NCBI GenBank assembly: GCA_963783265.1
Contig: CAWAMU010000017.1
Coordinates: 286 to 64,285 of the forward strand
From: an uncultured Alphaproteobacteria bacterium
GTDB lineage: Bacteria > Pseudomonadota > Alphaproteobacteria > Sphingomonadales > Sphingomonadaceae
Direction: 5' to 3'
DNA length: 64,000 nucleotides
A program made the translations under genes and the position numbers. This document shows positions 32,323-48,779 of this stretch, piece by piece. Below the pieces are notes generated by a model that ran no database searches, was not told the origin of the DNA, and saw only the letters and a program-made list of their open reading frames with translations. Position 1 is the stretch's first letter. Every line of letters starts with the position of its first letter.

Positions 32323-33352
32323 CTACTTCTCCTGGCCAATCGCGTGCTTCTTCATCGTATGGCGCAACTGGTCATAGGTAAGGCCAAGGGCCTGGGCGGT
32401 CTGGCGCTGGTTCCAGCGATTGGCACCCAGCGCATGTTCGACGATCGACTTCTCGTGATCGTCGACCGCGGCGCGCAAGTCGGTGATGTCGTCCAGCCGC
32501 GGCCGCGGGGCGGACTGCTGGCGCGCCGACTGGCTGGTATTCTCGGCGCCAGCAGGGGTTGCACCGGGCAGCGGTTTCCACGGCGAATCGAACGGGTCGA
32601 ACACGACTTCGCCGATGGGCTGTTCCCAATTATCCCAGCGATAGACCGCGCGCTCCACCACGTTTCGCAGTTCACGCACATTGCCGGGCCAGGGATGGTT
32701 TTCCAGTCCGCGCGCAACATGATCGGCGAAAGCCGGGCCATTCATCCCAGCTCAGCTCTGCGGCCATGCGCCTGCCGAAATAGTCGGCCAGCACGGGAAT
32801 ATCCCCTTCGCGCACGCGCAGGGGCGGCAGGGTGATGACCTCGAATGTCAGGCGGTCGAGCAGGTCGGCACGGAAGGTGCCTTCGTCCGCGCGGCGCGGC
32901 AGGTCTTCATTGGTGGCAGCCACGATGCGCACATCGACGCGGGTCGGTCGACTGGCACCGATGCGCGTAACCTCGCCATATTCCACCGCCCGCAGCAGCC
33001 GTTCCTGGGCGCCCATGGACAAGGTGCCCAGTTCGTCGAGAAATAACGTGCCCCGGTCGGCTTCCTCGAACCGCCCCTCGCGCGCTCTGGTAGCGCCGGT
33101 GAACGCGCCCTGCTCATGGCCGAACAGTTCGGCCTCGATCAGGGTTTCGGGAAGCGCAGCGCAGTTCATGGTGACCAGCGGCTCTTCCCAGCGATCGGAC
33201 AGGCGGTGCAGGCGTTCGGCGATCAATTCCTTGCCGGTGCCGCGTTCGCCGATTACGAGTACCGGGCGCGCCATCGGCGCGGCGCGGCTGGCCCGCTCCA
33301 CCGCATCGAGAAAGGCGCCGGACTGGCCGATGAACTGGTTATCGCGCTCCAT
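32323..33352 (-). CDS. pspF: Psp operon sigma-54 activator PspF (apparent frameshift ~32740)
   Basis: GERGTGKE, GAFTGA, LFLDE, PWPGNVREL and a C-terminal HTH. No N-terminal regulatory domain. Divergent from pspA. Confidence 0.93.
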
Positions 33353-33361
33353 TGCCAAGAT

Positions 33362-33467
33362 ATAGTGCGATTTCCCAACACTTGGCAATAGACACCAACC
33401 ATCTTTTCTCTTTTCTGCGAAAAAACCGCAGGAATCCGCCATTCCTGAAATTTGGCACGGCTGTTGC
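33362..33467 (+). promoter_or_regulatory. Sigma-54 promoter of the psp operon with candidate activator sites
   Basis: TGGCACGGCTGTTGCA at 33452-33467 (GG-N10-GC). Upstream are ATAGTGCGATTTCCCAA (33362) and TTGGCAATAGACACCAA (33382), candidate PspF sites. Confidence 0.85.
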
Positions 33468-33504
33468 AATTCATGGTGTAGAAAGGGTTCAGGAGGAAAA
33501 ACAC

Positions 33505-33657
33505 ATGTTTGATCGCAGCTTCTTCAACAGCCAACTTGGCCAGGCCGCCATGGTTAGCATCGCCGCGATGATCGCCTTCACCATCTTTGCCGGCATGGAG
33601 CCGGTGGCAGACACGCCAGCCATGCTGGTGGGCCTGCCGACGGTGGAACTGGCGTGA
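33505..33657 (+). CDS. 50-aa hydrophobic protein, first gene of the psp operon
   Basis: AGGAGG RBS. MFDRSFFNSQLGQAAMVSIAAMIAFTIFAGMEP..VELA. The stop overlaps GTG 33654. Confidence 0.7.
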   Translation: MFDRSFFNSQLGQAAMVSIAAMIAFTIFAGMEPVADTPAMLVGLPTVELA

Positions 33658-33794
33658 CCGACGAAAACCGCAACCCTTTGAAGCCGCAGGGTAGTGGCAG
33701 GTCTCGCATCGGCTCGCGTCTCGAGAAGGAAATCGAGCGCATCCGCACCAGCCCCACCCCCACCGGCAACTCGCTTAATATCGGAGGACCCTTG

Positions 33795-34502
33795 ATGGGT
33801 ATTTTTTCGCGCACCCGTGACATTATCGCCGCCAACTTCAACGAGCTGCTCGACCAGGCGGACGATCCCTCGAAGATGATCCGCATGATCATCCTCGAAA
33901 TGGAGGAAACGCTGGTGGAAGTCCGGGCGAGCGCTGCTCGCACGATTGCCGACCAGAAGGAAATGCACCGCCACACGGTGAAACTGGACCGGCTCCAGTC
34001 CGACTGGGCAGAGAAGGCGCAACTGGCGCTGAGCAAGGATCGCGAAGACCTGGCCCGCGCCGCGCTGATGGAGAAGCGCAAGTCTTCCGACATGTGCGAC
34101 CAGTTGAAGCAGGAAATCGCCGTACTGGACGATGCCCTGCGCGCCTATGACCAGGACATTACCAAGCTGCAGAACCGCCTGCGCGAGGCCCGCAGCCGCC
34201 AGAGCCAGATATCGGCCCGTCTGGAAAGCGCGGAGAACCGCGTGAAGCTGCGCAGCCTGATGACCAATGAACGGGTGGAAGACGCGCACAGCCGCTTCGA
34301 CCAGCTGGAACGCCGGGTGGATTACGCCGAAGGCCGCGCCGATGCCCTGGGTATCGGCCAGAACAAGGCCACCCTCGCCGACGAATTCGCAGCCCTGGAA
34401 GGCGGCGACAAGGTCGACGACGAACTGGAGGAAATGAAGCGCGCGCTCGGCATGGGAAGCCAGGACAAGGGCAGCAGCGCCAAGACTGAAGAAGGGGAAT
34501 AA
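33795..34502 (+). CDS. pspA: Phage shock protein A (possible upstream in-frame start at 33654)
   Basis: MGIFSRTRDIIAANFN..DPSKMIRMIILEMEETLVEVR..KAQLALSKDREDLARAAL. GGAGG precedes ATG 33795. Confidence 0.95.
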   Translation: MGIFSRTRDIIAANFNELLDQADDPSKMIRMIILEMEETLVEVRASAARTIADQKEMHRHTVKLDRLQSDWAEKAQLALSKDREDLARAALMEKRKSSDMCDQLKQEIAVLDDALRAYDQDITKLQNRLREARSRQSQISARLESAENRVKLRSLMTNERVEDAHSRFDQLERRVDYAEGRADALGIGQNKATLADEFAALEGGDKVDDELEEMKRALGMGSQDKGSSAKTEEGE

Positions 34503-34504
34503 TC

Positions 34505-34807
34505 GTGGACATGGAACCAATTTTCATTGTGTCGGCAATCTTCATCGGATTGCCCTGGGTCGTCCTCCACTACGTGACCAAGTGGAAAACCGCTGCCACC
34601 ATCACCACCGATGACGAGGCTCTGCTGGAAGAACTCTACCAGCTGGCCAAGCGGCTGGACGAACGCATGGATACGGTCGAGCGCCTCGTCTCTTCGGACC
34701 ATCCGGATTTCGAGCCCGCCCGCATCCAGCACGACAAGGCCATCGACAACGTACCGCTGCGCGAGCTGGAGGAACTGCTCGCAGAGAAGAAAGGAAACCA
34801 GGCATGA
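34505..34807 (+). CDS. pspB: Phage shock protein B
   Basis: FIGLPWVVLHYVTKWK..LYQLAKRLDERMDTVERLV..PDF. Confidence 0.9.
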   Translation: MDMEPIFIVSAIFIGLPWVVLHYVTKWKTAATITTDDEALLEELYQLAKRLDERMDTVERLVSSDHPDFEPARIQHDKAIDNVPLRELEELLAEKKGNQA

Positions 34808-35178
34808 ACAGCCCCCGCACGAAACTTTACCGCGACAAGGTGAATGGCAAGCTGATGGGCGTCTGCTCCGGTATCGCCGACTACACCGGCGTAAACGTTC
34901 TCTGGATCCGCCTGGGTATGATCATTCTTGCCATAACCCTCGGCTGGCCCATTCTCGCCTACATCGGCGCAGGCTTCCTGCTGAGCAAGAAGCCGCCACA
35001 TCTCTACACCGCGCCCGATGAAACGCAGTATTGGCAGAACGTCCGGCAGAGCCCGAAGCGTACCGCGCGCGAAATCCGCGCCCGGATGAAGGATATCGAT
35101 CGCCGCCTGGCCGATGTGGAAACCTACTACGTTTCCGCCAATCCGCGCCTGTCGCAGGAAATCGAACAACTGCGCTGA
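34804..35178 (+). CDS. pspC: Phage shock protein C
   Basis: LYRDKVNGKLMGVCSGIADY..IRL..IDRRLADVETYYVSANPRLSQEIEQLR. Confidence 0.92.
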   Translation: MNSPRTKLYRDKVNGKLMGVCSGIADYTGVNVLWIRLGMIILAITLGWPILAYIGAGFLLSKKPPHLYTAPDETQYWQNVRQSPKRTAREIRARMKDIDRRLADVETYYVSANPRLSQEIEQLR

Positions 35179-35212
35179 GGGGCGCACCACACCGAGGAAA
35201 AGGGGACGAAAC

Positions 35213-35522
35213 ATGGGTGAGCTGATTCCCATCGTGGCAATCATCATGGGGTGCGGCATTCCGATCACCGCGATCTGGGCCAAGCACAAGCAGAAGATCG
35301 CCGAGATGCAGGTGGATGCCACCGCCGCCAACACCGCCGAGAAGGCCGCTCAATACGCCAGTCGCACCCAGGAGCTGGAAGACCGGGTCCGCGTGCTGGA
35401 GCGCATCGTCACCGACAAGGGCTACGACATCGCCACCCAGATCGAAGCCCTGCGCGACCAGCGCAGCCGTCGATGAAGGCAACGGCGTTCCCCTCGACAT
35501 CGCTCGCAAGGAGAACGTCTGA
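35213..35522 (+). CDS. psp-array small membrane protein 1 (frameshift ~35465)
   Basis: TM helix then LEDRVRVLERIVTDKGYDIATQIEALR. The alternative-frame tail DEGNGVPLDIARKENV ends in a TGA overlapping the next ATG. Confidence 0.75.
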
Positions 35523-35880
35523 TGGATTGGGGCAGCCCGGAATTCATTATCGCGATCGTCGCCCTGTCCACGCTGGGCTGGATCGTGAACAACTGGATAC
35601 GCGCCAAACACGGCTATCCGCTGGAAGACGAGTGGGGCGGCAAGACGCAGCCGCAAAGACAGCCAGGATGCCGCGAAACTGCGCGAACAGAACCAGCAAC
35701 TGCGCGATGTCATGGAACGGATGGAAGACCGCATGATCGTGCTGGAACGCATCGTCACCGACAAGGGCTACACCGTGGCCGAGGAGATCGAGGCGCTGCG
35801 TGACAAGCCCGCCCGCGAAACCCGCGAAACAAGCGACAATGGCGTGCCCTCTGAACATCAGGAACAGGGAACAGGCATAA
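35522..35880 (+). CDS. psp-array small membrane protein 2 (frameshifts ~35655 and ~35850)
   Basis: MDWGSPEFIIAIVALSTLGWIVNNWIRAKHGYPLEDEWGG..MEDRMIVLERIVTDKGYTVAEEIEALR..DNGVPL. TAATG coupling to the next gene. Confidence 0.7.
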
Positions 35881-36198
35881 TGGATTTCGGATACAATCAC
35901 TCCCGCAGTCCTTGGCGTTGGCGTCATCTCGATTTCGATCGGCTGGGTCGTCAACACGTGGATCCGCGTGAATCACGGCTATCCGCTGGAAAACAGCTGG
36001 GGCAAGGCAGTGTATCCCAAGAACGACCAGGCCGCCGAGCGCGTGAAGCTGCTGACCCAGGAAAACGCGGCGCTTCAGGCTGAACTGGGATCGCTGAAGG
36101 ACCGCCTCGCCAACGTGGAGCGGATCGTCACCGACAGCGGCTATCACCTCACCCACGAGATCGAGAGCCTGCGGAGCGACAAGAAGGACGCGAACTGA
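35880..36198 (+). CDS. psp-array small membrane protein 3 (frameshift ~35890)
   Basis: VLGVGVISISIGWVVNTWIRVNHGYPLENSWGK..LKDRLANVERIVTDSGYHLTHEIESLR. TGATG coupling. Confidence 0.72.
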
Positions 36199-36498
36199 TG
36201 GATATGAACCTGATTGTCATCTTCACCTTCATCCTGCTGGCCGCCGGCCTGGTGTTCGCGATGGCGCACAAGTTTCACCAGCGCACCGTAGAGCATGAGG
36301 AACGCAAGCTGGAACTGAAGGCCCGCATTGCAGAGGCCAAGGCGCAGGAAGGCTGAAGTGCGGCAGGAATTGATGCAATATCTGGAGGACCGGATGCGGG
36401 TGATCGAACGGATCGTGACCGACCCCACGGCCGATCTTTCGCGCCAGATCGAGAATCTGCGCGCAGACGAGGTCGCCCGGCAGGAGAAGGCATCGTGA
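36198..36498 (+). CDS. psp-array small membrane protein 4 (frameshift ~36350)
   Basis: MDMNLIVIFTFILLAAGLVFAMAHKF..YLEDRMRVIERIVTDPTADLSRQIENLR. Not in the supplied ORF track. Confidence 0.7.
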
Positions 36499-36748
36499 GC
36501 ATGTGGGCGCATGATCTTCCTGATCGTACTGGTCGAGCATCGCCTTCGCCGCCTGGAAGCGGTCGCAGGACGCAAGGCAGGGTGTCATCCGCGACAATCG
36601 CGGTAACCCAATTGCCGATACACAGCGCGAGGCAGAGCTTCAGCGGGAAGTCGAAGAACTGCGCGAGCGGATAAAAGTACTTGAACGTATCGCCACCGAT
36701 CCGGCGCGCCGGACGGCCGAGGAAATTGAAAAGCTGCGCGACGAGTAA
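36495..36748 (+). CDS. psp-array small membrane protein 5 (N-terminal frameshifts)
   Basis: GTGA coupling. MIFLIVLV-SIAFAAWKRSQ..LRERIKVLERIATDPARRTAEEIEKLRDE. Confidence 0.68.
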
Positions 36749-36786
36749 TCGTCGCTGCACCCAGTGAAACTTGCAGGGAGGACCAA

Positions 36787-37026
36787 ATGACGCAAATCGA
36801 CCTGTTGTTCGCCGCCAGCAGCCTGCTCGCGATAGCCATGCTCAGCGCCTCTGCGCTGATGGGCTGGCAGGGATGGCTTGCCCTGAAACGGCGCGAGCTG
36901 GAAATGCATCGCACGCCGCCTGAACTGGAAGGCGGATCGCGCGAAGGCATGGCCCGGATCGAGATTGCCGACCTGAAGGAACGCATCCGCAAGCTGGAAG
37001 CCATCGCGAACGGGGTGGACCTCTGA
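36787..37026 (+). CDS. psp-array small membrane protein 6
   Basis: GGAGG RBS. TM helix then IADLKERIRKLEAIANGVDL, a shortened form of the motif. Confidence 0.72.
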   Translation: MTQIDLLFAASSLLAIAMLSASALMGWQGWLALKRRELEMHRTPPELEGGSREGMARIEIADLKERIRKLEAIANGVDL

Positions 37027-37040
37027 CGCGCAGCCACTAG

Positions 37041-37457
37041 ATGGCATCCATGCGAACACTTGAAGACATCCAGGAAGAATACGAATTTCTCGAAGGCGAT
37101 GAACGCTATCGGCTGCTGATAGAGCTTGGCCGCGAGCTGGACGAGATGCCCGCCGCGCTGAAAACCGATGCCACGCTGGTGCGCGGCTGCTCGGCGCAGG
37201 TCTGGGTCTATCCCACCGAAGAGGCAGGCCAGCTGCATTTCCTGGCAGACAGCAATGCTGCCATCACCAAGGGCATCGTCGCGCTGGTAATCTCTGCCGT
37301 GCAGGACAAGCCCGCAAACGACGTGGCGCAGATGGACATCGCCGACGCGCTGGCCCCGTTTGACCTGAAGAACCAGCTTTCCTCCAACCGCACCCAGGGC
37401 GTGCCCAACATGATCGCGCTGGTGCAGGATCATGCCGCCCGGATTGCGCAGGGCTGA
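37041..37457 (+). CDS. sufE: SufE family Fe-S metabolism protein
   Basis: RYRLLIELGREL..VRGCSAQVW..ADSNAAITKGIV..LSSNRTQG. Confidence 0.88.
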   Translation: MASMRTLEDIQEEYEFLEGDERYRLLIELGRELDEMPAALKTDATLVRGCSAQVWVYPTEEAGQLHFLADSNAAITKGIVALVISAVQDKPANDVAQMDIADALAPFDLKNQLSSNRTQGVPNMIALVQDHAARIAQG

Positions 37458-37458
37458 C

Positions 37459-37810
37459 ATGGCGCGCCCGCTGTGGATGGCAGCGGGGATCGTCTGCTTT
37501 GTACTGGGCTGGATCGGAATGGTGTTGCCGATCATGCCCGGCTTCGTGTTCCTGCTGGGCGCATTGTTCTGCTTTGCACGGGGCAATCCGAAGTGGGAAG
37601 CGAAGATGCTGGATCATCCCACCTACGGCCCTGCCTTGCGGGACTGGCGCGAACATCGCCGTATCGCGCGCAGGAGCAAACTTGCAGCCTTGGGATTAAT
37701 GGCCGTGGCCGCTGTGTCTGGCTGGAGTGGCCGCAGGTTTTCCGGTGGCCATCGTTCCAATCGCGATCATGGCGCTTGTGGGCGGATGGATCTGGACCAG
37801 GCCGGAATAA
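37459..37810 (+). CDS. YbaN/DUF454 family membrane protein (frameshift ~37720)
   Basis: LGWIGMVLPIMPGFVFLLGALFCFARG..MLDHPTYGPALRDW..RRSK. Confidence 0.8.
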
Positions 37811-37875
37811 AGGAACAGGCATCGCTTCGCAGGATTGATGGAGCAAGAACCTCTCAATCCCTGACGGAGTTATCC

Positions 37876-38034
37876 ATGAATATCATTATCCTGATCGCCA
37901 CTATCCTTCTGCCGCCGCTGGGCGTTGCGCTGAAGCACGGTCTTGGCAAGACCTTCCTGATCAACCTGATCCTGACGCTGATCCTGTTCGTACCCGGTCT
38001 GATTCACGGCATCTACGTGAACTTCATGCGCTGA
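37876..38034 (+). CDS. YqaE/Pmp3 family proteolipid
   Basis: ILLPPLGV..FLINLILTLILFVPGLIHGIY. Confidence 0.88.
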   Translation: MNIIILIATILLPPLGVALKHGLGKTFLINLILTLILFVPGLIHGIYVNFMR

Positions 38035-38043
38035 GGCGGCGCT

Positions 38044-38544
38044 TCAGGCGCCCACGCTGTCGCGAACGACGGCAATGCCAGCTTCGCGCTGGCGCTTCAG
38101 ATCCGCTTTAAGCCTGGCGGGGTCACGGGCAAAAACGAAGCCGAAGCTGACCCCGCCTTCCTTGCCAACGGTGGCATGGTGCAGCTTGTGCGCCTGCACC
38201 AGCCGTTTCGCATAGCCGCGCTTGGGCACCCATTTGAAGTAGCGCTGGTGCACCAGCCCGTCGTGGACGAGCGTGTAGATCACGCCGTAAACGGTAATGC
38301 CCATGGCAAACCACCACAGCGCATCCGAGATGAAATAACCCACGGTGAACATCACCACCACAATGCTGCCGAACACAACGGCGAACAGGTCGTTCTTCTC
38401 CAGCACATTGTCGTGCGGTTCGTGATGGTCGCGGTGCCAGGCCCAGCCCCAGCCATGCATCACGTATTTGTGCGCCCACCAGGCGAACAGTTCCATGAAT
38501 ATGACCGCGCTCGTCACGGTGAGGATGATTTGCAGCAACGTCAT
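38044..38544 (-). CDS. crtZ: Beta-carotene 3,3'-hydroxylase
   Basis: MELFAWWAHKYVMHG.GW.WHRDHH..EKND..HDGLVHQR..AHKLHH..VSFGF. Confidence 0.92.
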   Translation of the reverse strand: MTLLQIILTVTSAVIFMELFAWWAHKYVMHGWGWAWHRDHHEPHDNVLEKNDLFAVVFGSIVVVMFTVGYFISDALWWFAMGITVYGVIYTLVHDGLVHQRYFKWVPKRGYAKRLVQAHKLHHATVGKEGGVSFGFVFARDPARLKADLKRQREAGIAVVRDSVGA

Positions 38545-39305
38545 TCTGTCAGCTCTCTAACGCTTTTTCCGGCAACCTCGCGGCGGCGGGGCAAGGCCCA
38601 CCACGGCGTTTGCGGAAAGCTGTGATGTTCGTGATGATAGCCGAAATGGAAGCAGGTTGCGAGGCTGACGAGCGGAGAGAAATCGTCAGACCGGGCATTG
38701 TGCCTGTCGCCAAAGCTATCGACGCCATGCCGGTGCGGGCGATAGGTGCCGAAATAGAACAGCTGGATGCTGGACGCGATGGCCGGAAGGCCGAACACCA
38801 GCACGATCTGCTCCATCGGCACCCCCACCACCAGCCAGTAGGTCGTCACGATGGTGGAGACATAGGCGATCGATCGCCAGCCGAAATAGCGCGTCAGGAA
38901 GGTCTTGTACCAGCGCCAGAAATCGCTGGGGTTGGCGGTATCGAAATCGGGATCGCCGTCCAGGCCCGCATGGCGGTGATGGGCGAAATGGGCATCGCGC
39001 ATCTTGCGCCAGCCAAAGCCTGCATAAAGAAACAGCAATCCGCCGCCGATCGCGCCGTTGAGACGCGGCCATCCGGGAGCAAGCGAGCCGTGCATCGCAT
39101 CATGGCTGATGATGAACAGGCCGACCGAAAGCCAGCATTGCAGAACGGCAATGCCAAGACCCAGCGGCAAGGTACTCCACGTCAGTTCGAAAACGAAAAT
39201 GGCGTAGATATGCAACGCCAGCCAGGCGCCGAAAATCAGCGCTGCCAGACCAAGACCGATCATGGCCTGCATCGCGCGGTCGGATTGCGGCAAGGTTTGC
39301 GTCAT
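38541..39305 (-). CDS. crtW: Beta-carotene ketolase
   Basis: WLSVGLFIISHDAMHG, HFAHH, DPDF, QLFYFGTYRPHR, CFHFGYHHEHH..PWW. ATGA-coupled to crtZ. Confidence 0.88.
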   Translation of the reverse strand: MTQTLPQSDRAMQAMIGLGLAALIFGAWLALHIYAIFVFELTWSTLPLGLGIAVLQCWLSVGLFIISHDAMHGSLAPGWPRLNGAIGGGLLFLYAGFGWRKMRDAHFAHHRHAGLDGDPDFDTANPSDFWRWYKTFLTRYFGWRSIAYVSTIVTTYWLVVGVPMEQIVLVFGLPAIASSIQLFYFGTYRPHRHGVDSFGDRHNARSDDFSPLVSLATCFHFGYHHEHHSFPQTPWWALPRRREVAGKSVRELTE

Positions 39306-39415
39306 AACCATGGGTCTTAGAAGCAAAATCGCGACGCGCAAACGCGTCCAGTGGTCGGTATGGCACCGCTCATTTGCGAAAAGGCGGGAAGCATCAGCGC
39401 TTCGCCCCGTGAAAG

Positions 39416-39820
39416 TTATTTGGGAGGCAGGCCGAAATAGCGTTCCGCCACCTTCTGATCGATCCGTGCAGGCCGCAAGGTCGTGCTGTCGATGCAGCAC
39501 CACATGCTCTGCACTTCGGCCAGCACGTCTTCCCCGCGGCGAATCACCGTGTTGTAGAAACTGCGCGCGCCCCTGATCTTTTCCAGCACCGTCTCGGCGA
39601 TCACATCGTCGTTCAGGAATGCCGGGCGACGATAGGTGATCTCGTGTTTCAGCGCGACCCAGCCCTTGTTCGCCACCTCTTCGGCGGGGGCAAGTTTCTG
39701 CCAATGCTGCAGCACCACATCCTGCACCCAGTTGAGATAGCGGGAATTGTTCACGTGACCCATGAAATCGATATCATCGGGAAGGATCTTGATCGGAATT
39801 GCAAATGGCTTGGCTGACAT
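39416..39820 (-). CDS. Acyl-CoA thioesterase (4HBT/YbgC-like)
   Basis: DDIDFMGHVNNSRYLNW. Confidence 0.8.
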   Translation of the reverse strand: MSAKPFAIPIKILPDDIDFMGHVNNSRYLNWVQDVVLQHWQKLAPAEEVANKGWVALKHEITYRRPAFLNDDVIAETVLEKIRGARSFYNTVIRRGEDVLAEVQSMWCCIDSTTLRPARIDQKVAERYFGLPPK

Positions 39821-39918
39821 GTGTGTAAGTTAGTCGCCCAAGGTTAACTTTCCAAGACAATACGAAGCCTTTTTTCGTATTACTTGGCTCGAAACAATCC
39901 GCGCGCTATCTGCCCTGC

Positions 39919-41361
39919 ATGGCCAGCAAACCCCGCACCTTGTACGAAAAGATTTTCGACGCCCATGTGATCGAGCGGCGCGACGACGGCACCTGCCTGA
40001 TCTTTATCGACCGGCATCTCGTTCACGAAGTCACCAGCCCGCAGGCGTTCGAGGCTTTGCGGATGAACGGTCGCACCGTGCGCCATCCCGAGCTGACCCT
40101 GGCCGTTCCTGACCATAACCTGCCCACCACCCCCCGCCTCGACGCGCGGGGTGAGCGAATTCCCATCGCCGACAAGGAAAGCCGCGACCAGCTGGCCGCG
40201 CTGGAGCGCAATGCGCCGGAATTCGGCGTCCGCTATTTCGATGCCACGTCCTCGCAACAGGGCATCGTCCACGTCGTCGGGCCTGAGCAGGGCTTCTCGC
40301 TGCCCGGCACCACGATCGTGTGCGGCGACAGCCACACCGCCTGCCACGGCGGACTTGGCGCCTGGGCCTTTGGCATCGGCACCAGCGAAGTGGAGCACGT
40401 TCTCGCCACGCAAACCCTGCTGCTGCGCCCGTCGAAGACGATGGAAGTGCGCGTGGACGGCGAGCTGGGCCTCGGCATCACGGCCAAGGATCTGATCATG
40501 CACATCATCGGCGTCGTCGGTACCGCAGGCGGCACCGGCCACGTGATCGAATACAGGGGCAAGGTGTTCGAAAAGATGAGCGTGGAATCGCGCCTCACCG
40601 TTTGCAACATGAGCATCGAGGCTGGCGCACGCGGCGGCCTGATCGCACCCGACGAAACCACTTTCGCCTATATCAAGGGCCGTCCCTTTGCGCCCAAGGG
40701 CGAAGAGTGGGATGACGCGGTTGCCTATTGGAAGACGCTGTACACCGATCCCGATGCCGAGTTCGACCGCTCCGTCGTGATCGACGCTACCGACGTCGAG
40801 CCATCGGTCACCTGGGGCACAAGTCCCGAAGACGTAGTGGCCATCGGCGGCACCGTTCCCGCGCCCGAAAGCTTTGACGATCCCTCGAAGCAGGAAGCGG
40901 CACGCGCCAGCCTCGATTACATGGACCTGGCACCCGGCACGCGGATGCAGGATGTGGAAGTGCAGAACATCTTCATCGGCAGCTGCACCAACAGCCGCAT
41001 AGAGGACCTGCGCGCCGCCGCCGAAGTTCTGCGCGGAAGGCACAAGGCCGACAACGTGAAATGGGCCATCGTCGTGCCCGGATCGGGCCTTGTGAAAATG
41101 CAGGCCGAGGCCGAGGGACTGGACAAGATATTTACCGACGCGGGCCTCGAATGGCGTGAGCCGGGCTGCTCTGCCTGCCTCGGCATGAACCCCGACAAGG
41201 TGCCCGCCGGCGAACGCAGCGCCTCCACCAGCAATCGCAATTTCGTGGGCCGACAGGGTCCGGGCGCGCGCACGCACCTTGTCTCTCCCGCCATGGCCGC
41301 CGCCGCGGCGGTGACAGGACGCCTCACCGATGTGCGCGAACTGACGCGTGAGCCAGCGTAA
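39919..41361 (+). CDS. leuC: 3-isopropylmalate dehydratase large subunit
   Basis: [49 protein letters not shown]. Confidence 0.97.
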
Positions 41362-41842
41362 AACATCATTTGCGCCCATCGTTCAGGACGACACGCGACT
41401 GCTGATCCTGGGCAGCCTGCCGGGCGAAAGATCGCTCGCGGCGGGCCAGTATTATGCGCATCCGCAAAACCGCTTCTGGCATCTGATGGAGCGCGTGATT
41501 GGCGCACCGCTGGTGTCGCTGGACTACGAAAAACGGGTCGCGGCACTCCTGCGTCACAAGGTCGGCTTGTGGGATGTGGTCAGGTCGGCCGAGCGGAAGG
41601 GGAGTCTCGATGCAGCAATTCGCGCTGTCGAGACGACAGACCTGCCCTCGCTGGTTTCGGGCCTGTCACAGTTGCAGGCAGTCGCCTTCAATGGCAGGAA
41701 ATCGGAGACAATCGGCAAGCCGCAACTCGACAAATTCCCGGTTCAAACCATCGCCCTTCCATCCTCCAGTCCCGCACATGCGGCGATGAATTTCGCCGAA
41801 AAGGCGGAAGAATGGGACAAACTGCACCATTTTCTTCGCTGA
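41348..41842 (+). CDS. UDG-superfamily DNA glycosylase (hypoxanthine/deoxyinosine glycosylase-like)
   Basis: [34 protein letters not shown]. Confidence 0.82.
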
Positions 41843-41881
41843 ATCTTGCAACATAGCCGTCTCGAGAGCATTTGACCTATT

Positions 41882-42040
41882 ATGACTGATCGTATTCCCA
41901 AGAAGGCGGCCATGGCCGCCGGTGCCATTGGCTCTGCCGCCGTCGCCGCAGCCTTGCTTTACGCCAATCATCGCAAGAAGAAGAGCACGCCCACCCAGCC
42001 CGGCCCGATTCCCAGCGGCGAAAAGCCGGAGACGGACTGA
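41882..42040 (+). CDS. 52-aa hypothetical protein coupled to leuD
   Basis: [37 protein letters not shown]. Its TGA overlaps the leuD ATG. Absent from the ORF track. Confidence 0.65.
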
Positions 42041-42645
42041 TGGACAAGGTCGGCACTGTTGAAGGCCGGGCGATCCCGTTCGGTCGCAAGAATGTCGATA
42101 CAGACCTGATTATTCCCGCGCGCTGGCTGAAAACCACGAGCCGCGATGGTCTGGGTCGTGGCGCATTCGAATCTGTACGGTCCGATAATCCCGATAACAT
42201 CTTCGACCGCGAAGAATTTGCGGGCGCCCCGATCCTGGTCGCCGGCGATAACTTTGGCTGCGGCTCCAGTCGTGAGCACGCCGCATGGGCGCTGCTGGAC
42301 ATGGGCATCCGTGCGGTGATTGCTCCCAGCTTTTCCGACATATTCGCAGGTAACGCCTTCAAGAACGGCATTCTCACCGTGGCCCTGCCGCAGGAACAGG
42401 TGGACCGGTTGCTGGAGGTGGCGAAGACCGATCCGATCTCCATCGACCTGGATGCGCAAAGTGTTACCACTCCGTTCCAGGATCGCTTCACCTTCGAAAT
42501 CGACCCCTTCCGCAAGCACTGCCTGACCGAGGGTCTGGACGAGGTCGGACTGACCCTGACTCGCGACGACGCTATCACCCGCTATGAAAACCGGCTTACC
42601 GCGGACAAGCCATGGCTGGCGCGCGGCACCGGAGTTGCGGCCTGA
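42040..42645 (+). CDS. leuD: 3-isopropylmalate dehydratase small subunit
   Basis: [35 protein letters not shown]. Confidence 0.97.
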
Positions 42646-42687
42646 CGCGCCAGACCCTATTCCATAGTTTTACAGCAAGGATTTCCC

Positions 42688-43014
42688 GTGATGACCAATT
42701 TCAAGGACCGCGAACGCGGCGAAGAAGCCAAATATGCGATGGATGAGGAAACCGCTTTCAAGGTCGCCGCGCGTCGCAATCGCTTGTTTGGCGAATGGGC
42801 TGCCGGGCTGATGGACCTTACCTCCGAAGAAACCGACGCCTACAAGAAGGCCGTAATGCAGGCCGACTTCGAGGAAGCCGGCGATGAAGACGTGATCCGC
42901 AAGGTTCTTGGCGACCTGACGCAGGCCGGATGCGATGTCGACGAAGCTGCTGTGCGGGCCAAGCTGGAAGAAAAGGCCATCGAGGCCCGGCGCCAGTTCA
43001 TGAGCGAATCCTGA
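42688..43014 (+). CDS. DUF1476 family protein
   Basis: FKDRERGEEAKY..FKVAARRNRLFGEWAA..DFEEAGDEDV. Confidence 0.8.
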   Translation: MMTNFKDRERGEEAKYAMDEETAFKVAARRNRLFGEWAAGLMDLTSEETDAYKKAVMQADFEEAGDEDVIRKVLGDLTQAGCDVDEAAVRAKLEEKAIEARRQFMSES

Positions 43015-43039
43015 TCCTCTTGCCGCAAGGACTTTCCTG

Positions 43040-43273
43040 ATGCCCATGCCAGCCGAACAGATCGAGGCGCTGATCAAGTCCGCCATCCCCGATGCAACGG
43101 TAGAGATAGAGGCGCTGGTCGACGATAACGACCACTGGCTCGCCCGCGTCACTTCTGCCGAGTTCGCCGGAAAAAATCGTGTGCAGCAGCACAAGATGGT
43201 GTTCGCTGCACTGGGTGGCCGCATGGGCGGAGAGCTTCATGCCTTGCAACTGCACACCAGCGTTCCCAACTGA
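43040..43273 (+). CDS. BolA family protein
   Basis: DNDHW..SAEFAGKNRVQQHKMV..LHALQL. Confidence 0.9.
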   Translation: MPMPAEQIEALIKSAIPDATVEIEALVDDNDHWLARVTSAEFAGKNRVQQHKMVFAALGGRMGGELHALQLHTSVPN

Positions 43274-43308
43274 CTGTTATCAGTTTTCTCTATGACGTGG
43301 TGTGACAG

Positions 43309-43650
43309 ATGAGCGATATTAACGCCGAAACCAATGACCGTATCTCCAAGATCGTGAGCGACGCGGACGTCGTCCTGTTCATGAAGGGCACTCCGCTATT
43401 CCCGCAATGCGGTTTTTCCAACCGGGCGGTCTCGATCCTTGACCATTGCGGCGTCGCTTTCGACAGCGTCGACGTTTTGCAGGATCAGGAAATCCGTCAG
43501 GGCATCAAGAGCTTTTCCGACTGGCCAACCATCCCCCAGCTTTACGTAAAGGGTGAATTCGTGGGTGGCAGCGACATCATGATGGAAATGTTCGAGGCCG
43601 GTGAACTGAAGCAACTCCTGGACGAGAAGAAGGTCGAAAAGGCCTCCTGA
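43309..43650 (+). CDS. grxD: Monothiol glutaredoxin Grx4
   Basis: [28 protein letters not shown]. Confidence 0.95.
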
Positions 43651-43751
43651 TCGGTGCGTGCCTTCGGGCGCGCAAATTCCTCTGTAGCAGACTCTGTTTC
43701 CGTTCAGGAAAACCCGTCTATGCTCCGGATTATACAAATCCTGGAGCACCC

Positions 43752-44634
43752 ATGATCCGCACGCTTTTCACCGCCGCATTCGTTCTCGCCGCTCCTTTGA
43801 CGGCGCAGGCGCAGGACGCAATGCCCGCCGATCTTGCCGAACGTACGACACTGGCCCGAGAGGCTGAAGCCACCGCGCGCGTGATGGCCGATGTGCAGCA
43901 GGCCAGCGCTATCGCGCAGCAGCAATATGCAGGCATGACAGGTGGCGCATTCGGCGATGGCTATCGCGGCGCGGTGGCGTTCCCGGCAGAGACGCTTGGG
44001 GTCTGGAACGTGGTGATCGTGGCAGCGCGCGGTGAAGGCGCGCAGGCCCCTCTGGTGGCCCTTGCAGAGTATGAAATCGCGCAAGGACAGATCCTCTCCG
44101 AAAACTTGCACGACGGCGCTGATGCGCCCGCCGCTGACTGGCATCGCCCAGCAGATGGCCCGCGCGAAATACGTCGCTCCGCGCGCTGTCATCGCCTCAT
44201 CATCGGCAAGCTATTGCCTCGATGGCGAGCCTGCCCAAGCCGGCGCCAGCCATTCTGTCACCTACATTCCGCTGGTCCTGCCGCCAGACGATACTGGCGC
44301 AATGGTTGCCTATGTCCTCAACGGGCCGATTGCCGAGGGCGCGGTGCCTTTGGGCAAGCATTATCGCGTGTCGTTTGACGAGTTCGGGCAAATCGGCGAT
44401 CCTGAAATCGTGACCGACACCTGCGAAGTGGTGACCTGGGATGCCAATGATCCTGACATCGCGACGAAGGTTTACGCGACCGAGTTCGCGCAAGGGACAG
44501 CGCCCACTGCCATCCATAGCTATATCTCCGGCCAGATACCGATGAGCCTGGCCGTCGTGACGGGCGATATCATCTGGCCGATGGCAGGCGGCATGATCGC
44601 CCCGCCGGTGCCTGTCGCCGAAGCGGGTCTCTAG
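43752..44634 (+). CDS. Secreted hypothetical protein (frameshift ~44140)
   Basis: Signal peptide MIRTLFTAAFVLAAPLTAQA. The coding frame switches from ORF 43752-44378 to ORF 44032-44634. Confidence 0.55.
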
Positions 44635-44639
44635 GCCGA

Positions 44640-45257
44640 ATGTGCAACCTGTATCGCATGTCCAGATCGCAGGACGAGGTCGCGCATTTCTTCGATGCAA
44701 TAGCTCAGGATATGTCCGTCGCGCCAGGCGGGAATGCGCCGGAAATGGTCTACCCCGGTTATCCCGGCATGGTGCTGGCGGAGGGCAGGTTGGCGCAAAT
44801 GACCTGGGGCTTTCCTCTCAACCGCACAGGCGCGAAAGGCCAGCCGCTCAAGCCCAAGCCGATCAACAATGCGCGGACGGACAAGCTTTCCAGCGCGTTC
44901 TGGTCCGCCAGTTTCAAGGCGCGCCGCTGCCTCATTCCCCTCTCTGCATTTGCCGAGGCCGAGGGGCCGAAGGGCGGCAAGACCCGTACGTGGTTCAGCC
45001 TGCCGGATAGCGACCTGATGGCCGTGGCCGGGTTCTGGCGTGACAGCGCCGAATGGGGCGAGGCCTATACGATGGTGATGACCGAGGCCTGCATTCACGT
45101 GCAAGGCGTGCATGACAGGATGCCGGTCATCATGCCGCAGTCCGATTGGGAGCAGTGGATGCGGGGAGCGCCCGAAGAGGCCTTCCAGCTATGTCGACCA
45201 TATGGCGGCGAGATGCAGGTAACGCGCACGGATGAGCCGTGGGCCGGTTGGCGGTAG
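44640..45257 (+). CDS. SOS response-associated peptidase (SRAP/HMCES)
   Basis: N-terminal MC, NARTD, RCLIP..FAE, HDRMPVI. Confidence 0.9.
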   Translation: MCNLYRMSRSQDEVAHFFDAIAQDMSVAPGGNAPEMVYPGYPGMVLAEGRLAQMTWGFPLNRTGAKGQPLKPKPINNARTDKLSSAFWSASFKARRCLIPLSAFAEAEGPKGGKTRTWFSLPDSDLMAVAGFWRDSAEWGEAYTMVMTEACIHVQGVHDRMPVIMPQSDWEQWMRGAPEEAFQLCRPYGGEMQVTRTDEPWAGWR

Positions 45258-45264
45258 CGTTCAA

Positions 45265-45362
45265 AGGTTTCGGGGATGTGGTTCTTCGGGGAGGCGGGAC
45301 CGGGAGACTTGGTTGGGGACCATTGGGTCGGTCCCGCCTCGTTCGAAGAACTCTTGGGTACG
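45265..45362 (-). ncRNA. Candidate sigma-54-dependent small RNA (boundaries predicted)
   Basis: Lies downstream of a sigma-54 promoter with no convincing ORF. Forms a long hairpin, 45281-45302 pairing with 45329-45351, with a C-rich 26-nt loop. Confidence 0.4.
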
Positions 45363-45370
45363 CAAACAAC

Positions 45371-45470
45371 ATTGCATGGCCCGTGCCAGTTTGGCCGATC
45401 CACGGATTCCTGCGGTACACGATGGTTCGTGAAACCTTAACGCCGCCAGCTTGTGTCAAGAAATCCGACA
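45371..45470 (-). promoter_or_regulatory. Sigma-54 promoter with candidate enhancer site
   Basis: Minus strand TGGCACGGGCCATGCA (GG at 45387/86, GC at 45375/74). TGTC-N9-GACA palindrome at 45454-45470. Confidence 0.65.
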
Positions 45471-45599
45471 GCGAGACGAGAATCGCGGGGCCTGCCTTCC
45501 GGTCACCGCTTTGCATGACCGATCCGGCCAATCCAGCGGACCTTACACGGCTGTGAAGCGTCCTTCTTGTATACCCCGAGATCAGAAGGACACAGCAAG

Positions 45600-46979
45600 A
45601 TGAGCACGATCAACACCATCAACCCCGCGACTGGCAAAAATCTCGACACCTACGAGGAGATTGACCGGGACGCCGCCTATGCGAAGGTCGATGCCTGTCA
45701 CGATGCTTTCACGAAATGGAAGCTGAAATCTGCCGAAGACCGCGCCGAAGTCATCAAGGCTCTCGGCCAGGCGCTGCGCGACAACAAGGAAGAGCTTGCC
45801 CAGTTGATGACCGACGAGGTCGGCAAGCTGATCAAGGATAGCCGCGACGAAGTGGAACTGTGCGCGGCGATCTGCGACTACACTGCGCAAACTGGCCCCA
45901 AGGAGCTTGCCTCGGAGCCGCGCGATCCATCCAATGCAGGCCGCGGCATTGTCGCCTATGCGCCAATCGGTGTGGTTTATGGCATCCAGCCGTGGAATTT
46001 CCCTGCCTACCAGGTGATCCGCTATGCCATCGCCAGCCTGATGGCGGGTAATGGCGTGCTGCTGAAACATGCGTCCAACTGCACGGGCAGCGGCCTGAAG
46101 ATCGCGGAGATTTTCGAGAAGGGTGGCCTGCCCAAGAACCTGTTTACCGTGCTGGTGATCGATCACGATACGTCAGACGCGATTATCGAACACGACAAGG
46201 TGCGCGGCGTTACGCTCACCGGATCCGACACGGCGGGCAAGCATGTCGGCCAGGCCGCCGCCAAGGTGCTCAAGCCTACAGTGCTCGAGCTTGGCTCCAA
46301 TGATGCCTACCTTGTTCTGGAAGATGCCGATCTCGATACCGCTGTGGAGGTCTGTTCGCAGGCCCGACTGTATAACAACGGCGAAACCTGCATCAACGGA
46401 AAGCGCTTTATCGTGACCGAGAAGGTCTACGACAAGTTCCTCGAGAAGTTCGTTGCCCGCTTCGAAGCGGTGAAAACCGGCAATCCTAACGATGAGGACA
46501 CCGATCTTGGCCCGATGGCCCGGACCGACCTGCGCGAAACGGTCCACGAACAGGTGGAAGACAGCGTGAAGAACGGTGCCAAGATCGAATGCGGCGGCAA
46601 GATCCCCGATGGCGACGGTGCATTCTATCCCGCCACGGTCCTTTCCAATGTAAAGCCCGGTCAGCCTGCCTATGACGACGAGATTTTCGGCCCCGTTGCC
46701 TCCGTCATCAAGGCCAAGGATGATGAAGACGCAATGCGCCTTGCCAATGACAGCCGCTATGGCCTTGGTGGCGGTATCCTCTCGACGAACGAGGAGCGCG
46801 CGATCGAACTGGCTTCGAAGCATTTCGACACCGGCATGATCTTCGTCAACGTGTACGGCGTGGCGGATCCCTCGATGCCCTTCGGCGGGGTGAAGAACTC
46901 GGGCTACGGCCGCGAGCACGGCGGTTTTGGCGTGAAGGAATTCGTAAACGTGAAGAGTATCTTCGTCGGCGCTGCCTGA
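45600..46979 (+). CDS. NAD-dependent succinate-semialdehyde dehydrogenase-like ALDH
   Basis: QPWNFP, LTGS, LELGSND, NNGETC, EIFGPV, PFGGVKNSGYGRE. Confidence 0.9.
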   Translation: MSTINTINPATGKNLDTYEEIDRDAAYAKVDACHDAFTKWKLKSAEDRAEVIKALGQALRDNKEELAQLMTDEVGKLIKDSRDEVELCAAICDYTAQTGPKELASEPRDPSNAGRGIVAYAPIGVVYGIQPWNFPAYQVIRYAIASLMAGNGVLLKHASNCTGSGLKIAEIFEKGGLPKNLFTVLVIDHDTSDAIIEHDKVRGVTLTGSDTAGKHVGQAAAKVLKPTVLELGSNDAYLVLEDADLDTAVEVCSQARLYNNGETCINGKRFIVTEKVYDKFLEKFVARFEAVKTGNPNDEDTDLGPMARTDLRETVHEQVEDSVKNGAKIECGGKIPDGDGAFYPATVLSNVKPGQPAYDDEIFGPVASVIKAKDDEDAMRLANDSRYGLGGGILSTNEERAIELASKHFDTGMIFVNVYGVADPSMPFGGVKNSGYGREHGGFGVKEFVNVKSIFVGAA

Positions 46980-46994
46980 TTGTTTGTTTTACCC

Positions 46995-47220
46995 TCAAAC
47001 GCCGGGCGCAAGCCGTCCGGCTCGCTTGGCTTTCCTCGCCTAGGCTCGGGCGCGCGTTCGCGCTTGCGGTCGCTTCGCGTCCGAGACTAGCGCGACCTTT
47101 GCAAGGGGCTCGAGTTTCGGTCCGCGCCGAGAAGACCGCGAGGCCGAACGGCCGCCCGCAGCGGGCGCAGCTTGCTGCGCATTGAGCGAGGACGATCCCG
47201 CGGAGGCGGAATCGAAAAAT
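46995..47220. repeat. Palindrome-rich intergenic element (REP/MITE-like)
   Basis: About 220 bp non-coding with several short inverted repeats, e.g. GCGCAGC-TT-GCTGCGC at 47165-47180 and GGCCG-AA-CGGCC at 47141-47152. Confidence 0.35.
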
Positions 47221-47224
47221 AGAA

Positions 47225-47301
47225 TGGTGCGCCCAGCAGGAGTCGAACCTGCGGCCTCAGGATTAGAAGTCCCGTGCTCTATCCAGCTGAGCTATGGGCG
47301 C
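47225..47301 (-). tRNA. tRNA-Arg(TCT)
   Basis: GCGCCCA..AGCTCAGCTGGATAGAGC..CT-TCT-AA..GGTTCGACTCC..TGGGCGCACCA, 77 nt. Confidence 0.97.
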
Positions 47302-47355
47302 GTGGCATGGGCGTTTAGCTGCATTTGCGGAATGCGCAAATGCCGCTAGCACCCC

Positions 47356-48083
47356 ATGATGACAAATAAGTCACCCAACCACCCGCCTGCCCCCACATCC
47401 GCACACGCGCAATTCCGCTATTTCGACCTCGTGATGGCGGCGTTTGTGGTGGTGCTGGTGCTGTCCAACGTCATCGGCGCGGCCAAGCTGTCGACGGTGG
47501 CAGGCTTCACCTTTGGCGCCGGCATCCTGTTCTTCCCGTTGTCCTATGTGATCGGCGACGTGCTGACCGAGGTTTACGGATATGCCCGCGCGCGGCGTGT
47601 GATCTGGGCAGGGTTTGCGGCGCTGGTGTTCATGGCCGTGATGAGCTTCGTGGTCGTCTCCCTGCCTCCCTCGGAAAGCTGGACCGGGCAGGAACTCCTA
47701 TGAGCAGATCTTCGGCCAGGTTCCGCGCATCGTCCTTGCATCTATCACCGCCTTCTGGGCGGGAGAATTCGTCAATTCATACGTGATGGCGAAGATGAAG
47801 CTCTGGACACAGGGCAAGGCGCTGTGGGCGCGCACCATCGGCTCCACGGTGGTGGGCCAGGGCGTCGACAGCCTGCTGTTCTACCCGATCGCCTTCCTCG
47901 GCGTTTGGGAGACGAGCGATGTGTTGCTGGTGATGGTGACGAACTGGGCGCTGAAAGTTGGCTGGGAAGCCTTGCTTACGCCCGTTACCTATCGCGTGGT
48001 CGGCTTCCTGAAGAAGCGCGAGGGTGTCGACATTTTCGACGAGGACACCGATTTCTCTCCCTTCGCGGCACGCGAAAACCGAT
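47356..48083 (+). CDS. Queuosine precursor transporter (YhhQ/VUT family; frameshift ~47695)
   Basis: LSNVIGAAK..FFPLSYVIGDVLTEVYGY..RTIGSTVVGQGVDSLLF..K.GWEALLTP. Confidence 0.85.
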
Positions 48084-48110
48084 AGGGAATGGGCGAAATG
48101 GCCGCCGGCG

Positions 48111-48332
48111 TCAGTCCGCCAGCAGCCAGATCGCTAGGTAGATGAGGATGAAGGTGCCGAACCCGGCGACCGCACCAACGGCGAAGATGATACGCACGAT
48201 GAGCGGGTCCATCCCAATGTATTTGGCAATACCGCCGCACACGCCGGCGATCTTGCCGTTGGTCTTGTCGAGGCGGAACTTCTTCTGTCCCGACAACCCT
48301 ACGGGATTGTCTCTGCGGTCAAGGTTGCTCAT
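48111..48332 (-). CDS. Stand-alone PspC-domain protein
   Basis: FRLDKTNGKIAGVCGGIAKYIGMDPLIVRIIF..ILIYLAIWLL. Confidence 0.88.
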   Translation of the reverse strand: MSNLDRRDNPVGLSGQKKFRLDKTNGKIAGVCGGIAKYIGMDPLIVRIIFAVGAVAGFGTFILIYLAIWLLAD

Positions 48333-48451
48333 GCCAGCAAGCCTACGACGGTGGTTGCGTGGGGGTTGGCAAAGCTGCTTACCAGCATGGTGAAAGTAAC
48401 GGCCACGGCGGCGAGGCCGGCCATCAGCTTGTTCTGGAATTCGTTGGTCAT
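48329..48451 (-). CDS. 40-aa hydrophobic peptide
   Basis: AAGGAG RBS. MTNEFQNKLMAGLAAVAVTFTMLVSSFANPHATTVVGLLA. ATGA overlap with the PspC-domain gene. Confidence 0.75.
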   Translation of the reverse strand: MTNEFQNKLMAGLAAVAVTFTMLVSSFANPHATTVVGLLA

Positions 48452-48490
48452 TTCAGTCTCCTTGGGTTTGGTGGTGGTTGGTGGTTGGCG

Positions 48491-48619
48491 TCAGGCAAGA
48501 ATGCTGGCGAAGATGCTCGCTTCGGGTGTCGAGAAGCTGCTGACGAGGATCGTGGTGGTCACGATAATTGCCGAAAGAGCAGCGGTGATGCGAGCGGCGA
48601 AGTCATTGGTGAAAGTCAT
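48491..48619 (-). CDS. 42-aa hydrophobic peptide, paralogue of the 40-aa peptide
   Basis: GAGGG RBS. MTFTNDFAARITAALSAIIVTTTILVSSFSTPEASIFASILA. Confidence 0.75.
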   Translation of the reverse strand: MTFTNDFAARITAALSAIIVTTTILVSSFSTPEASIFASILA

Positions 48620-48671
48620 TTTGTTTCCCTCTTGTGTTAGATCGGAACCATTCCGTCCCATGCACCAAACA

Positions 48672-48779
48672 TTGCACAGGGTGTGCCAGTTTTGAAAAAC
48701 GGCGGAATTCTGCCATTCTCGTTCACCAAACAGAAAGGTTGGCTCGAATGCGAAACCGATATGTGGTGAAATTCACCAA
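48672..48779 (-). promoter_or_regulatory. Sigma-54 promoter with palindromic candidate activator site
   Basis: Minus strand TGGCACACCCTGTGCA (GG at 48687/86, GC at 48675/74). TGGTGAA-A-TTCACCA palindrome at 48764-48778 and a half-site GTTCACCAA at 48721. Confidence 0.78.

Follow-up and report, generated by a model that had tools for sequence, protein, structure and literature searches.

What is the short sequence box that stands at one and the same distance ahead of three sigma-54 promoters in a marine alphaproteobacterium of the Erythrobacteraceae-type Sphingomonadales? The question arises from a stretch of 64,000 nucleotides (hereafter the window; contig CAWAMU010000017.1 of assembly GCA_963783265.1, positions 286 to 64,285). 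Its closest PspA relatives are those of Alteraurantiacibacter and Aurantiacibacter, which are Sphingomonadales of the same type. The box reads GCAGRAWTCCG. We call the promoters P1 (psp promoter), P2 (the second, hairpin-RNA promoter) and P3 (peptide/PspC promoter), and minus positions are counted from the T of TGGCAC. Our analysis suggests that the arrangement is a lineage variant of the textbook sigma-54 layout assisted by integration host factor (IHF). The box itself is, on comparative grounds, real and clearly functional, and we lean towards reading it as a diverged, lineage-specific and off-consensus bending site of the IHF type; IHF would then be its binder and bending its function.

Exact copies of the box are found in the window three times only, at 33428-33438 (plus strand), 45413-45403 (minus) and 48713-48703 (minus). 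Each is followed by 14 bp and then by TGGCAC-N5-(T/A/G)TGCA, at 33453-33468, 45388-45373 and 48688-48673, respectively. Judged by the −24/−12 criterion for sigma-54 (TGGCAC-N5-TTGCW, with GG and GC ten bases apart) P1, P2 and P3 all qualify as promoters, and in each of the three promoter sets no columns are better conserved than those of the −24 and −12 elements. A preliminary description of the window had reported the box ending 14 bp before TGGCAC in three places, with 13 identical leading bases in the first two strings and identity at 23 of 31 positions between the first and the third. All the strings were found where they had been placed, and both identity counts are correct. It had also called the three loci unrelated, which is mistaken: two are Psp-type operons, and all three lie in one gene neighbourhood. 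In one relative examined (G007) the same three sites occur at similar spacing on a single contig.

Both strands of the 3.25-Mb genome (18 contigs) contain 18 boxes, and a sigma-54 promoter adjoins only the three described here. Because the whole genome has only 18 boxes, the number expected by chance at that spacing is estimated at about 0.006. The box is missing from about seven other good sigma-54 promoter matches of the genome (three in C2, one in C6, one in C8 and two in C18, one glnK-type), and a general sigma-54 co-factor site is thereby ruled out. The preliminary description would have abandoned its proposal if the box were not enriched at this spacing at other sigma-54 promoters and if, in addition, mutating it had no effect. 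Only the first half applies: within this genome there is no such enrichment. Across species the box is conserved at promoters of the psp and PrsR type, and it is a property of these particular promoters.

How far does the conservation reach? The exact composite pattern was present in 12 of 25 genus genomes and in none of the 16 genomes sampled from other genera, and the reversed control gave no match. A relaxed form, GCNNRAWTYCGC-N13-TGGCAC, was detected in 41 of 301 genomes of the order, representing 13 of 86 genera, with no control matches; at least five of the inspected loci lie inside coding sequence and are chance matches. The P2 locus is present in 58 and the P3 locus in 44 of 61 genus genomes. 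In gapless alignments anchored at TGGCAC the box columns are far better conserved than the adjoining spacer. Specifically, among 34 genus sequences of the P2 set G−25 and C−24 are invariant (100%) and A−20 and A−19 are kept in 94-97%, with −28 and −30 freely variable. Among 74 psp promoters from many genera of the family the G and C positions of the box fall to 50-60%. What these promoters retain is a series of A/T blocks: an A-tract at −32 to −28, WWWTC at −21 to −17, TTT at −11 to −9 and TT at −2 to −1. In the family profile the blocks are phased about 10 bp apart (−30, −19.5, −9.5 and −1.5), with the A-tract 5' of the core. At P1 the tract is AAAAAA (33420..33425, plus strand), just upstream of the box, and it is conserved in the family (A in 47-73% at −32 to −28). 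The spacing of enhancer, box and promoter is constant to the base pair across genera; the box lies at −25 to −12, between the enhancers (about −98 to −63) and the sigma-54 promoter.

It is this position that links the box to IHF. As a test motif for the 13-bp IHF core WATCAANNNNTTR we used WATCARNNNNTTR, with nine scored positions. In the −20 register the box has three mismatches at P1, two at P2 and three at P3, where the background mode is six and three or fewer are found in 3.8% of windows. At P1 the box GCAGGAATCCG plus CCATTCC (33428..33445, plus strand; exact box match) includes the IHF-like core AATCCGCCATTCC at 33433-33445, the first base of which (consensus W) lies 20 bp upstream of the T of TGGCAC; its three mismatches are to WATCARNNNNTTR. 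At P2 the box GCAGGAATCCG (45403..45413, minus strand) includes the core AATCCGTGGATCG at 45408-45396, with two mismatches. Sister genera have near-consensus IHF cores in the same slot of the psp promoter. Fifteen of the 74 psp promoters carry a core with at most one mismatch, seven of them forward at −20 (for example TATCAGGGGTTTA and TTTCAATGGCTTG) and eight reversed at −32 (for example TAAATTGTTGATT and CAATCCATTGATA); the remaining registers between −70 and −14 contained only 2 and 5 cores of this quality, out of about 4100 windows in either case. Promoters of the PrsR type behave similarly. Twenty-one of 35 metagenome examples have a core with at most one mismatch, nearly all reversed at −32 to −29 or forward at −20/−19; P2 differs from them in having the box instead. 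Some orthologues are at once box-like and IHF-like. The L029 orthologue, GCCGGAAATCAGCCGTTTC, differs from the box-type GCAGAAATCCGCCATTTTC mainly in having A rather than C at −16. In the IHF-H' crystal structure of Rice et al. from 1996 the pseudo-dyad reportedly lies about one base pair 5' of the W. With the pseudo-dyad placed there, the forward and reversed registers would share one bend centre at about −20, which is also the centre of the dyad at P3. In slot, register and bend centre alike, the box coincides with the near-consensus IHF cores of the orthologous psp promoters in sister genera and of PrsR-type promoters elsewhere. A possible binder is at hand, since three PF00216 genes are present in the genome and look like those for an IHF-alpha-like, an IHF-beta-like and a HU-like (hupB-like) protein. 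The preliminary description had left the choice between a divergent IHF-type site and a lineage-specific co-factor site; it is partly supported, and the comparative data favour the former option.

Which activators work at these promoters? P1 and P3 have a second element in common at the same distance (−98 to −63), CCAA-N3/4-T(A/T)(T/G)(A/G)G-TGAAAWWTCCCAA. At P1 the predicted PspF enhancer CCAAG-ATATAGTGCGATTTCCCAAC-ACTTGGCAAT covers 33355..33389 (plus strand), with the core TAGTGCGATTTCCCAAC at 33363-33379, and its distance is fixed in the 74 psp loci. At P3 the predicted PspF enhancer is the palindrome TTGGTGAATTTCACCAC (48763..48779, minus strand), which lies −91 to −75 from TGGCAC, at the same distance as the P1 enhancer. 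Repeated motifs were read directly from E. coli K-12, GATGAAATTCGCCAC and TAGTGTAATTCGCTAAC at pspA and AGTCAAATTCACCAC at pspG, and we take them to be the upstream activating sequences (UASs) of PspF; the literature gives two UASs for pspA and one for pspG but not their sequences (PMC3709507). The P1 and P3 enhancer cores resemble this repeated motif, and because of the resemblance of the shared element to the E. coli psp motifs P1 and P3 are regarded as PspF-type promoters.

The E. coli psp system offers the closest comparison for the box as well. IHF is stated to assist PspF binding and looping at E. coli pspA (PMC3709507). Perfect IHF cores are present there between the UAS-like motif and the promoter, AATCAGATCTTTA from −34 at pspA and AATCAATAGATTA from −17 at pspG. 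In both systems the site, of IHF in E. coli and IHF-like here, is placed between the PspF upstream sites and the −24/−12 elements, and pspF and pspA are transcribed in opposite directions. Measured upstream from TGGCA, the E. coli cores begin at 17 bp (pspG) and 34 bp (pspA), and the core here begins at 20 bp. The difference is in the sequence: E. coli has a perfect A/T-rich WATCARNNNNTTR, whereas the box here is AWTCCGCCRTTYY, with a conserved GCAG on its 5' side and a dyad at P3.

P2 has another kind of enhancer. Its sigma-54 promoter TGGCACGGGCCATGCA (45373..45388, minus strand; a TGGCAC promoter match) is preceded, 65 nt upstream of TGGCAC, by the PEP-CTERM 'motif 1', the predicted PrsR box, as distal enhancer (tGTCGGATTTCTTGACA, 45454..45470, minus strand). 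The genus consensus of this motif is tGTCGG.aatttTtACA, 17 nt ending in TTTACA, with a 65-nt spacer. Haft et al. (2006) described the PEP-CTERM motif 1 as a 17-nt sequence ending in TTTACA, with the sigma-54 motif 2 beyond a spacer of 62.8 +/- 10.6 nt; motif 1 is the predicted PrsR site (PMC1569441). P2 is like that cis-regulatory region in having a 17-nt motif ending in T(T/G)ACA, a 65-nt spacer and a sigma-54 promoter, but it appears to drive a hairpin RNA and not a PEP-CTERM protein. A metagenome scan with GTCGG-N6-TKACA-N45-75-TGGCAC gave many matches ahead of PEP-CTERM genes, and the genome has a gene for PrsR itself (TIGR02915 at 684.7 bits, where the cut-off is 502.6). PspF had been considered as the activator of P2 as well and was replaced by PrsR once the PEP-CTERM motif 1 was recognised. 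In another family of the order the promoter of a PEP-CTERM gene (L168) has the motif 1 GTCGGAAAAATTGACA and, at −25 to −12, the same position as the box, GGCGGAATTCCGCGC. By these assignments the box is not tied to one activator, as it would serve PspF at P1 and P3 and PrsR at P2.

We propose that enhancer and promoter form a compact module in which the box is the architectural part that bends the DNA. The box is centred some 20 bp ahead of the T of TGGCAC, near −46 when counted from the start site, and the activator upstream sites lie about 65-98 bp upstream of TGGCAC, so that the box stands between these and the −24/−12 elements. A sharp bend held at this point, with a constant helical phase, would carry the activator hexamer on its DNA sites, PspF at P1 and P3 and PrsR at P2, onto the closed sigma-54 complex. 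Since the gap between enhancer and promoter is only about 65-85 bp, a phased protein-induced bend would be the simplest way to deliver the hexamer. Counted from the start site, −30 to −27 is where the PspF ring is known to contact DNA, immediately ahead of the −24 element (PMC3467059).

It is important to note that several observations weigh against an IHF-type site. A match to the IHF consensus with one mismatch or fewer is found in a single P2 orthologue and in none of the P3 orthologues. The box has C in place of the normally strong A of ATCAA (core position 5), and the final R is missed too. Near-invariant GCAG lies 5' of the core and CC falls inside the unspecified N4, and IHF leaves these GCAG/CCGCC arms unexplained. 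The P2 and P3 sets keep G−25, C−24, A−23, G−22, C−14 and C−13 at 90-100%; to our knowledge none of these positions is read by IHF. At P3 the box is a near-perfect 20-bp dyad, AATGGCAGAA|TTCYGCCATT, and such symmetry is unexpected for IHF, which is an asymmetric heterodimer. The arm and body residues with which IHF contacts DNA look conserved here, so there is no reason to expect an altered specificity. Finally, at none of the sigma-54 promoters of this genome was a canonical IHF site found that could serve as a calibrator.

The arms, the dyad and the misses in the consensus would suit a symmetric dimer better than IHF. The box could accordingly be the operator of an undescribed dimeric bending protein, or of an IHF with shifted, G/C-reading specificity, which Sphingomonadales would use instead of the canonical IHF site at envelope-related sigma-54 promoters of two or more activators, PspF and PrsR among them, the 20-bp P3 dyad AATGGCAGAATTCYGCCATT being its optimal form; we consider this rather unlikely. 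Somewhat less likely still is the narrower version, the main rival to IHF, in which a lineage-specific dimeric protein, neither IHF nor the activator, binds in the IHF slot and bends the DNA or co-regulates envelope-related sigma-54 promoters. Strong conservation of the G/C arms, the consistent departure from the IHF consensus, the use of the box in two regulons and the 5-6-5 palindrome TGGCA-GAATTC-TGCCA with its A/T flanks at P3 all speak for such a protein. P3 (48696..48719, minus strand; AGAATGGCAGAA|TTCCGCCGTTTT, with the core box at 48713-48703 and the dyad centre between −20 and −19) has a palindrome score of 5.1 of 6 (z about 5.5), and of the first ten mirror pairs eight show complementarity in 85% or more of 33 sequences. 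However, P1 shows little dyad symmetry and P2 none, and the conserved neighbourhood contains no candidate regulator gene: between the loci lie housekeeping genes (leuCD-like, SufE, BolA, a glutaredoxin and others), with no regulator among them. Nor is the palindrome enriched genome-wide. As a genome-wide palindromic transcription factor operator GCAGAWWTCTGC was rejected, with 42 matches at no more than one mismatch against about 26 expected by a rough estimate and no pattern in their location. Moreover, orthologous promoters have changed over to near-consensus IHF cores without a change of register, a pattern that is easier to reconcile with one protein than with two. One other place, outside the window, has box-like palindromes. 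The intergenic stretch C10:862,880-863,070 contains two of them (GGCAGATTTCTGCG and CCGCAGAATTCCGCC), a GTCGGGAATCTTTT string and three tandem ATTGTGCC(A/C)C repeats; the palindrome pair at 862.9 kb stands beside ATTGTGCCAC repeats. A sigma-54 promoter is absent from this stretch, which may be the regulatory region of a mobile element.

Two further explanations do without a bending protein, and we find each of them improbable. One takes the box for a PspF site close to the promoter, a third UAS in helical phase, that would tether the activator beside the closed complex and make a loop unnecessary. This was our earlier favourite. The right half of the box, CGCCAT (that is, ATGGCG), resembles the half-site TTRGYG derived from the E. 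coli and local enhancers, and by eye the box agrees with GATGAAATTCGCCAC of E. coli pspA at 12-13 of 16-18 positions. Within each promoter the enhancer sequence resembles the box slightly more than it resembles control segments (p about 0.007-0.03, the sequences not being independent), and the preferred offset of 63 bp amounts to six helical turns; in statistical terms nothing else favoured a proximal site. As the PspF ring reaches −30 to −27 (PMC3467059), a site at −46, likewise counted from the start site, is within its reach. On the other hand, a position weight matrix (PWM) of the enhancers gave the P3 box 3.5 bits (p about 1e-3) and did not place the box among the top positions at P1 and P2, and the box PWM does not single out the E. 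coli UAS-like motifs (p = 0.025 for the pspA motif). The box does not fit the PspF UAS of the type TTRGYG-N5-CRCYAA, nor is it confined to PspF-dependent promoters. It is also present at P2 and L168, which are of the PrsR type and have the PEP-CTERM motif 1 as enhancer, and presence at promoters of two activators counts against a PspF site. We dropped the explanation on the weak PWM tests and on this distribution. The other explanation needs no dedicated protein at all: phased A/T tracts would give an intrinsic bend, or an UP-like contact with the RNA polymerase alpha subunit, in place of IHF. Intrinsically curved DNA can replace IHF at sigma-54 promoters, for instance at K. pneumoniae nifLA, and intrinsic curvature is said, in the work of Carmona and Magasanik from 1996 and of Cheema et al. 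from 1999, to be able to substitute for IHF. Like these promoters, ours have phased A and T tracts between enhancer and promoter, and the most conserved features at the family level are A/T blocks about 10 bp apart and not the G/C positions. Unlike them, ours also conserve specific G and C bases, which hardly vary at P2 and P3 in the genus and are a sign of protein binding; and sister genera retain consensus IHF cores in the slot. A diverged IHF-type site thus remains the reading we prefer.

Regarding the genes under these promoters, P1 (TGGCACGGCTGTTGCA, 33453..33468, plus strand) drives an open reading frame (ORF) for a 50-residue peptide (33505-33657), followed by pspA, pspB and pspC; Pfam matches were obtained for PspA, PspB and PspC. 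The gene pspF (32326..33352, minus strand; best family TIGR02974), for a sigma-54 activator without a receiver domain, is divergent from P1, and the P1 enhancer abuts its start codon (33352-33350, minus strand). In the assembly pspF has a one-base frameshift after about residue 210, following ...AAELSWDEWPGF (32672-32745, minus strand), and the AAA+ part and the lid and helix-turn-helix part are in different frames; in five close relatives the gene is a single intact ORF. Either the assembly is wrong at this point, or pspF is a genuine pseudogene, in which case PspF would be uncoupled from its DNA-binding domain. The gene of a vitamin uptake transporter, Vut_1, is split as well (ORFs 47356-47703 and 47783-48085, plus strand), and two apparent frameshifts within 15 kb suggest indel errors of the assembly. 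The pspF start has no Shine-Dalgarno sequence, and upstream of it on the pspF strand TTGCCA-N18-TATATC-N6-ATG can be read (33350-33390). From this layout the pspF mRNA may be leaderless, and the putative sigma-70-type promoter of pspF would overlap the PspF enhancer, giving autoregulation as in E. coli.

P3 (TGGCACACCCTGTGCA, 48673..48688, minus strand) points away from recF and drives two peptides, each of about 40 residues (48619-48491 and 48451-48329), together with a 73-residue PspC-domain protein (48332-48111), which stands alone and matches PspC with E = 2.5e-19. The set of genes resembles a second Psp-type operon, unlinked to the first. ORFs for single-helix peptides of 40-50 residues come first after both PspF-type promoters (33505-33657, plus strand; 48111-48619, minus strand). 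P2 and P3 also have in common a short block, (T)AAC-N-TTTC, at about −52 to −43 with a 2-bp offset (48735-48745 and 45429-45441, minus strand), and P2 has an invariant AACCATCGT at −39 to −31; neither the block nor AACCATCGT matches the IHF consensus.

P2 is flanked by an aldehyde dehydrogenase gene on one side and by the 3' end of a convergent SRAP gene on the other. Its conserved upstream region extends to 82 bp before TGGCAC and has motif 1 as its first element; the upstream neighbours differ between species. No conserved ORF was found downstream of P2. The candidate small RNA there (45291..45340, minus strand) is a hairpin with a 12-bp stem (GAGGCGGGACCG ... CGGTCCCGCCTC) and the loop GGUCCCCAACCAAGUCUCCC. 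All 12 stem pairs are kept in 22 species, with compensatory and G–U changes that fit the P2 strand only. Of 61 genus genomes 58 have the hairpin RNA, as do two metagenome contigs (L202 and L237); an Rfam scan of the window returned two tRNAs only. On this evidence P2 looks like a PrsR-dependent sigma-54 promoter driving a conserved structured RNA (45270-45470, minus strand), and we found no published description of a small RNA controlled by PrsR. In the RefSeq annotation of E. coli K-12 (L161, 4,263,139-4,263,249) the small regulatory RNA PspH is placed just downstream of pspG. PspH offers a precedent for the Psp response having an RNA arm.

What the box means depends on its binder. If it is of the IHF type, it shows how far the sequence of a functional bending site can drift in a G+C-rich lineage with position and phase fixed, and it provides a natural series for the study of IHF requirements, from the consensus core through one-base variants to the box. 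If it is the site of another protein, that protein would be a new architectural co-factor of sigma-54 transcription. We found no paper describing the PspF or PrsR regulons in Erythrobacteraceae. Either way, the box helps to map sigma-54 targets in this family: the PspF set comprises pspABC and the second peptide/PspC operon, and the PrsR target is an apparently non-coding RNA.

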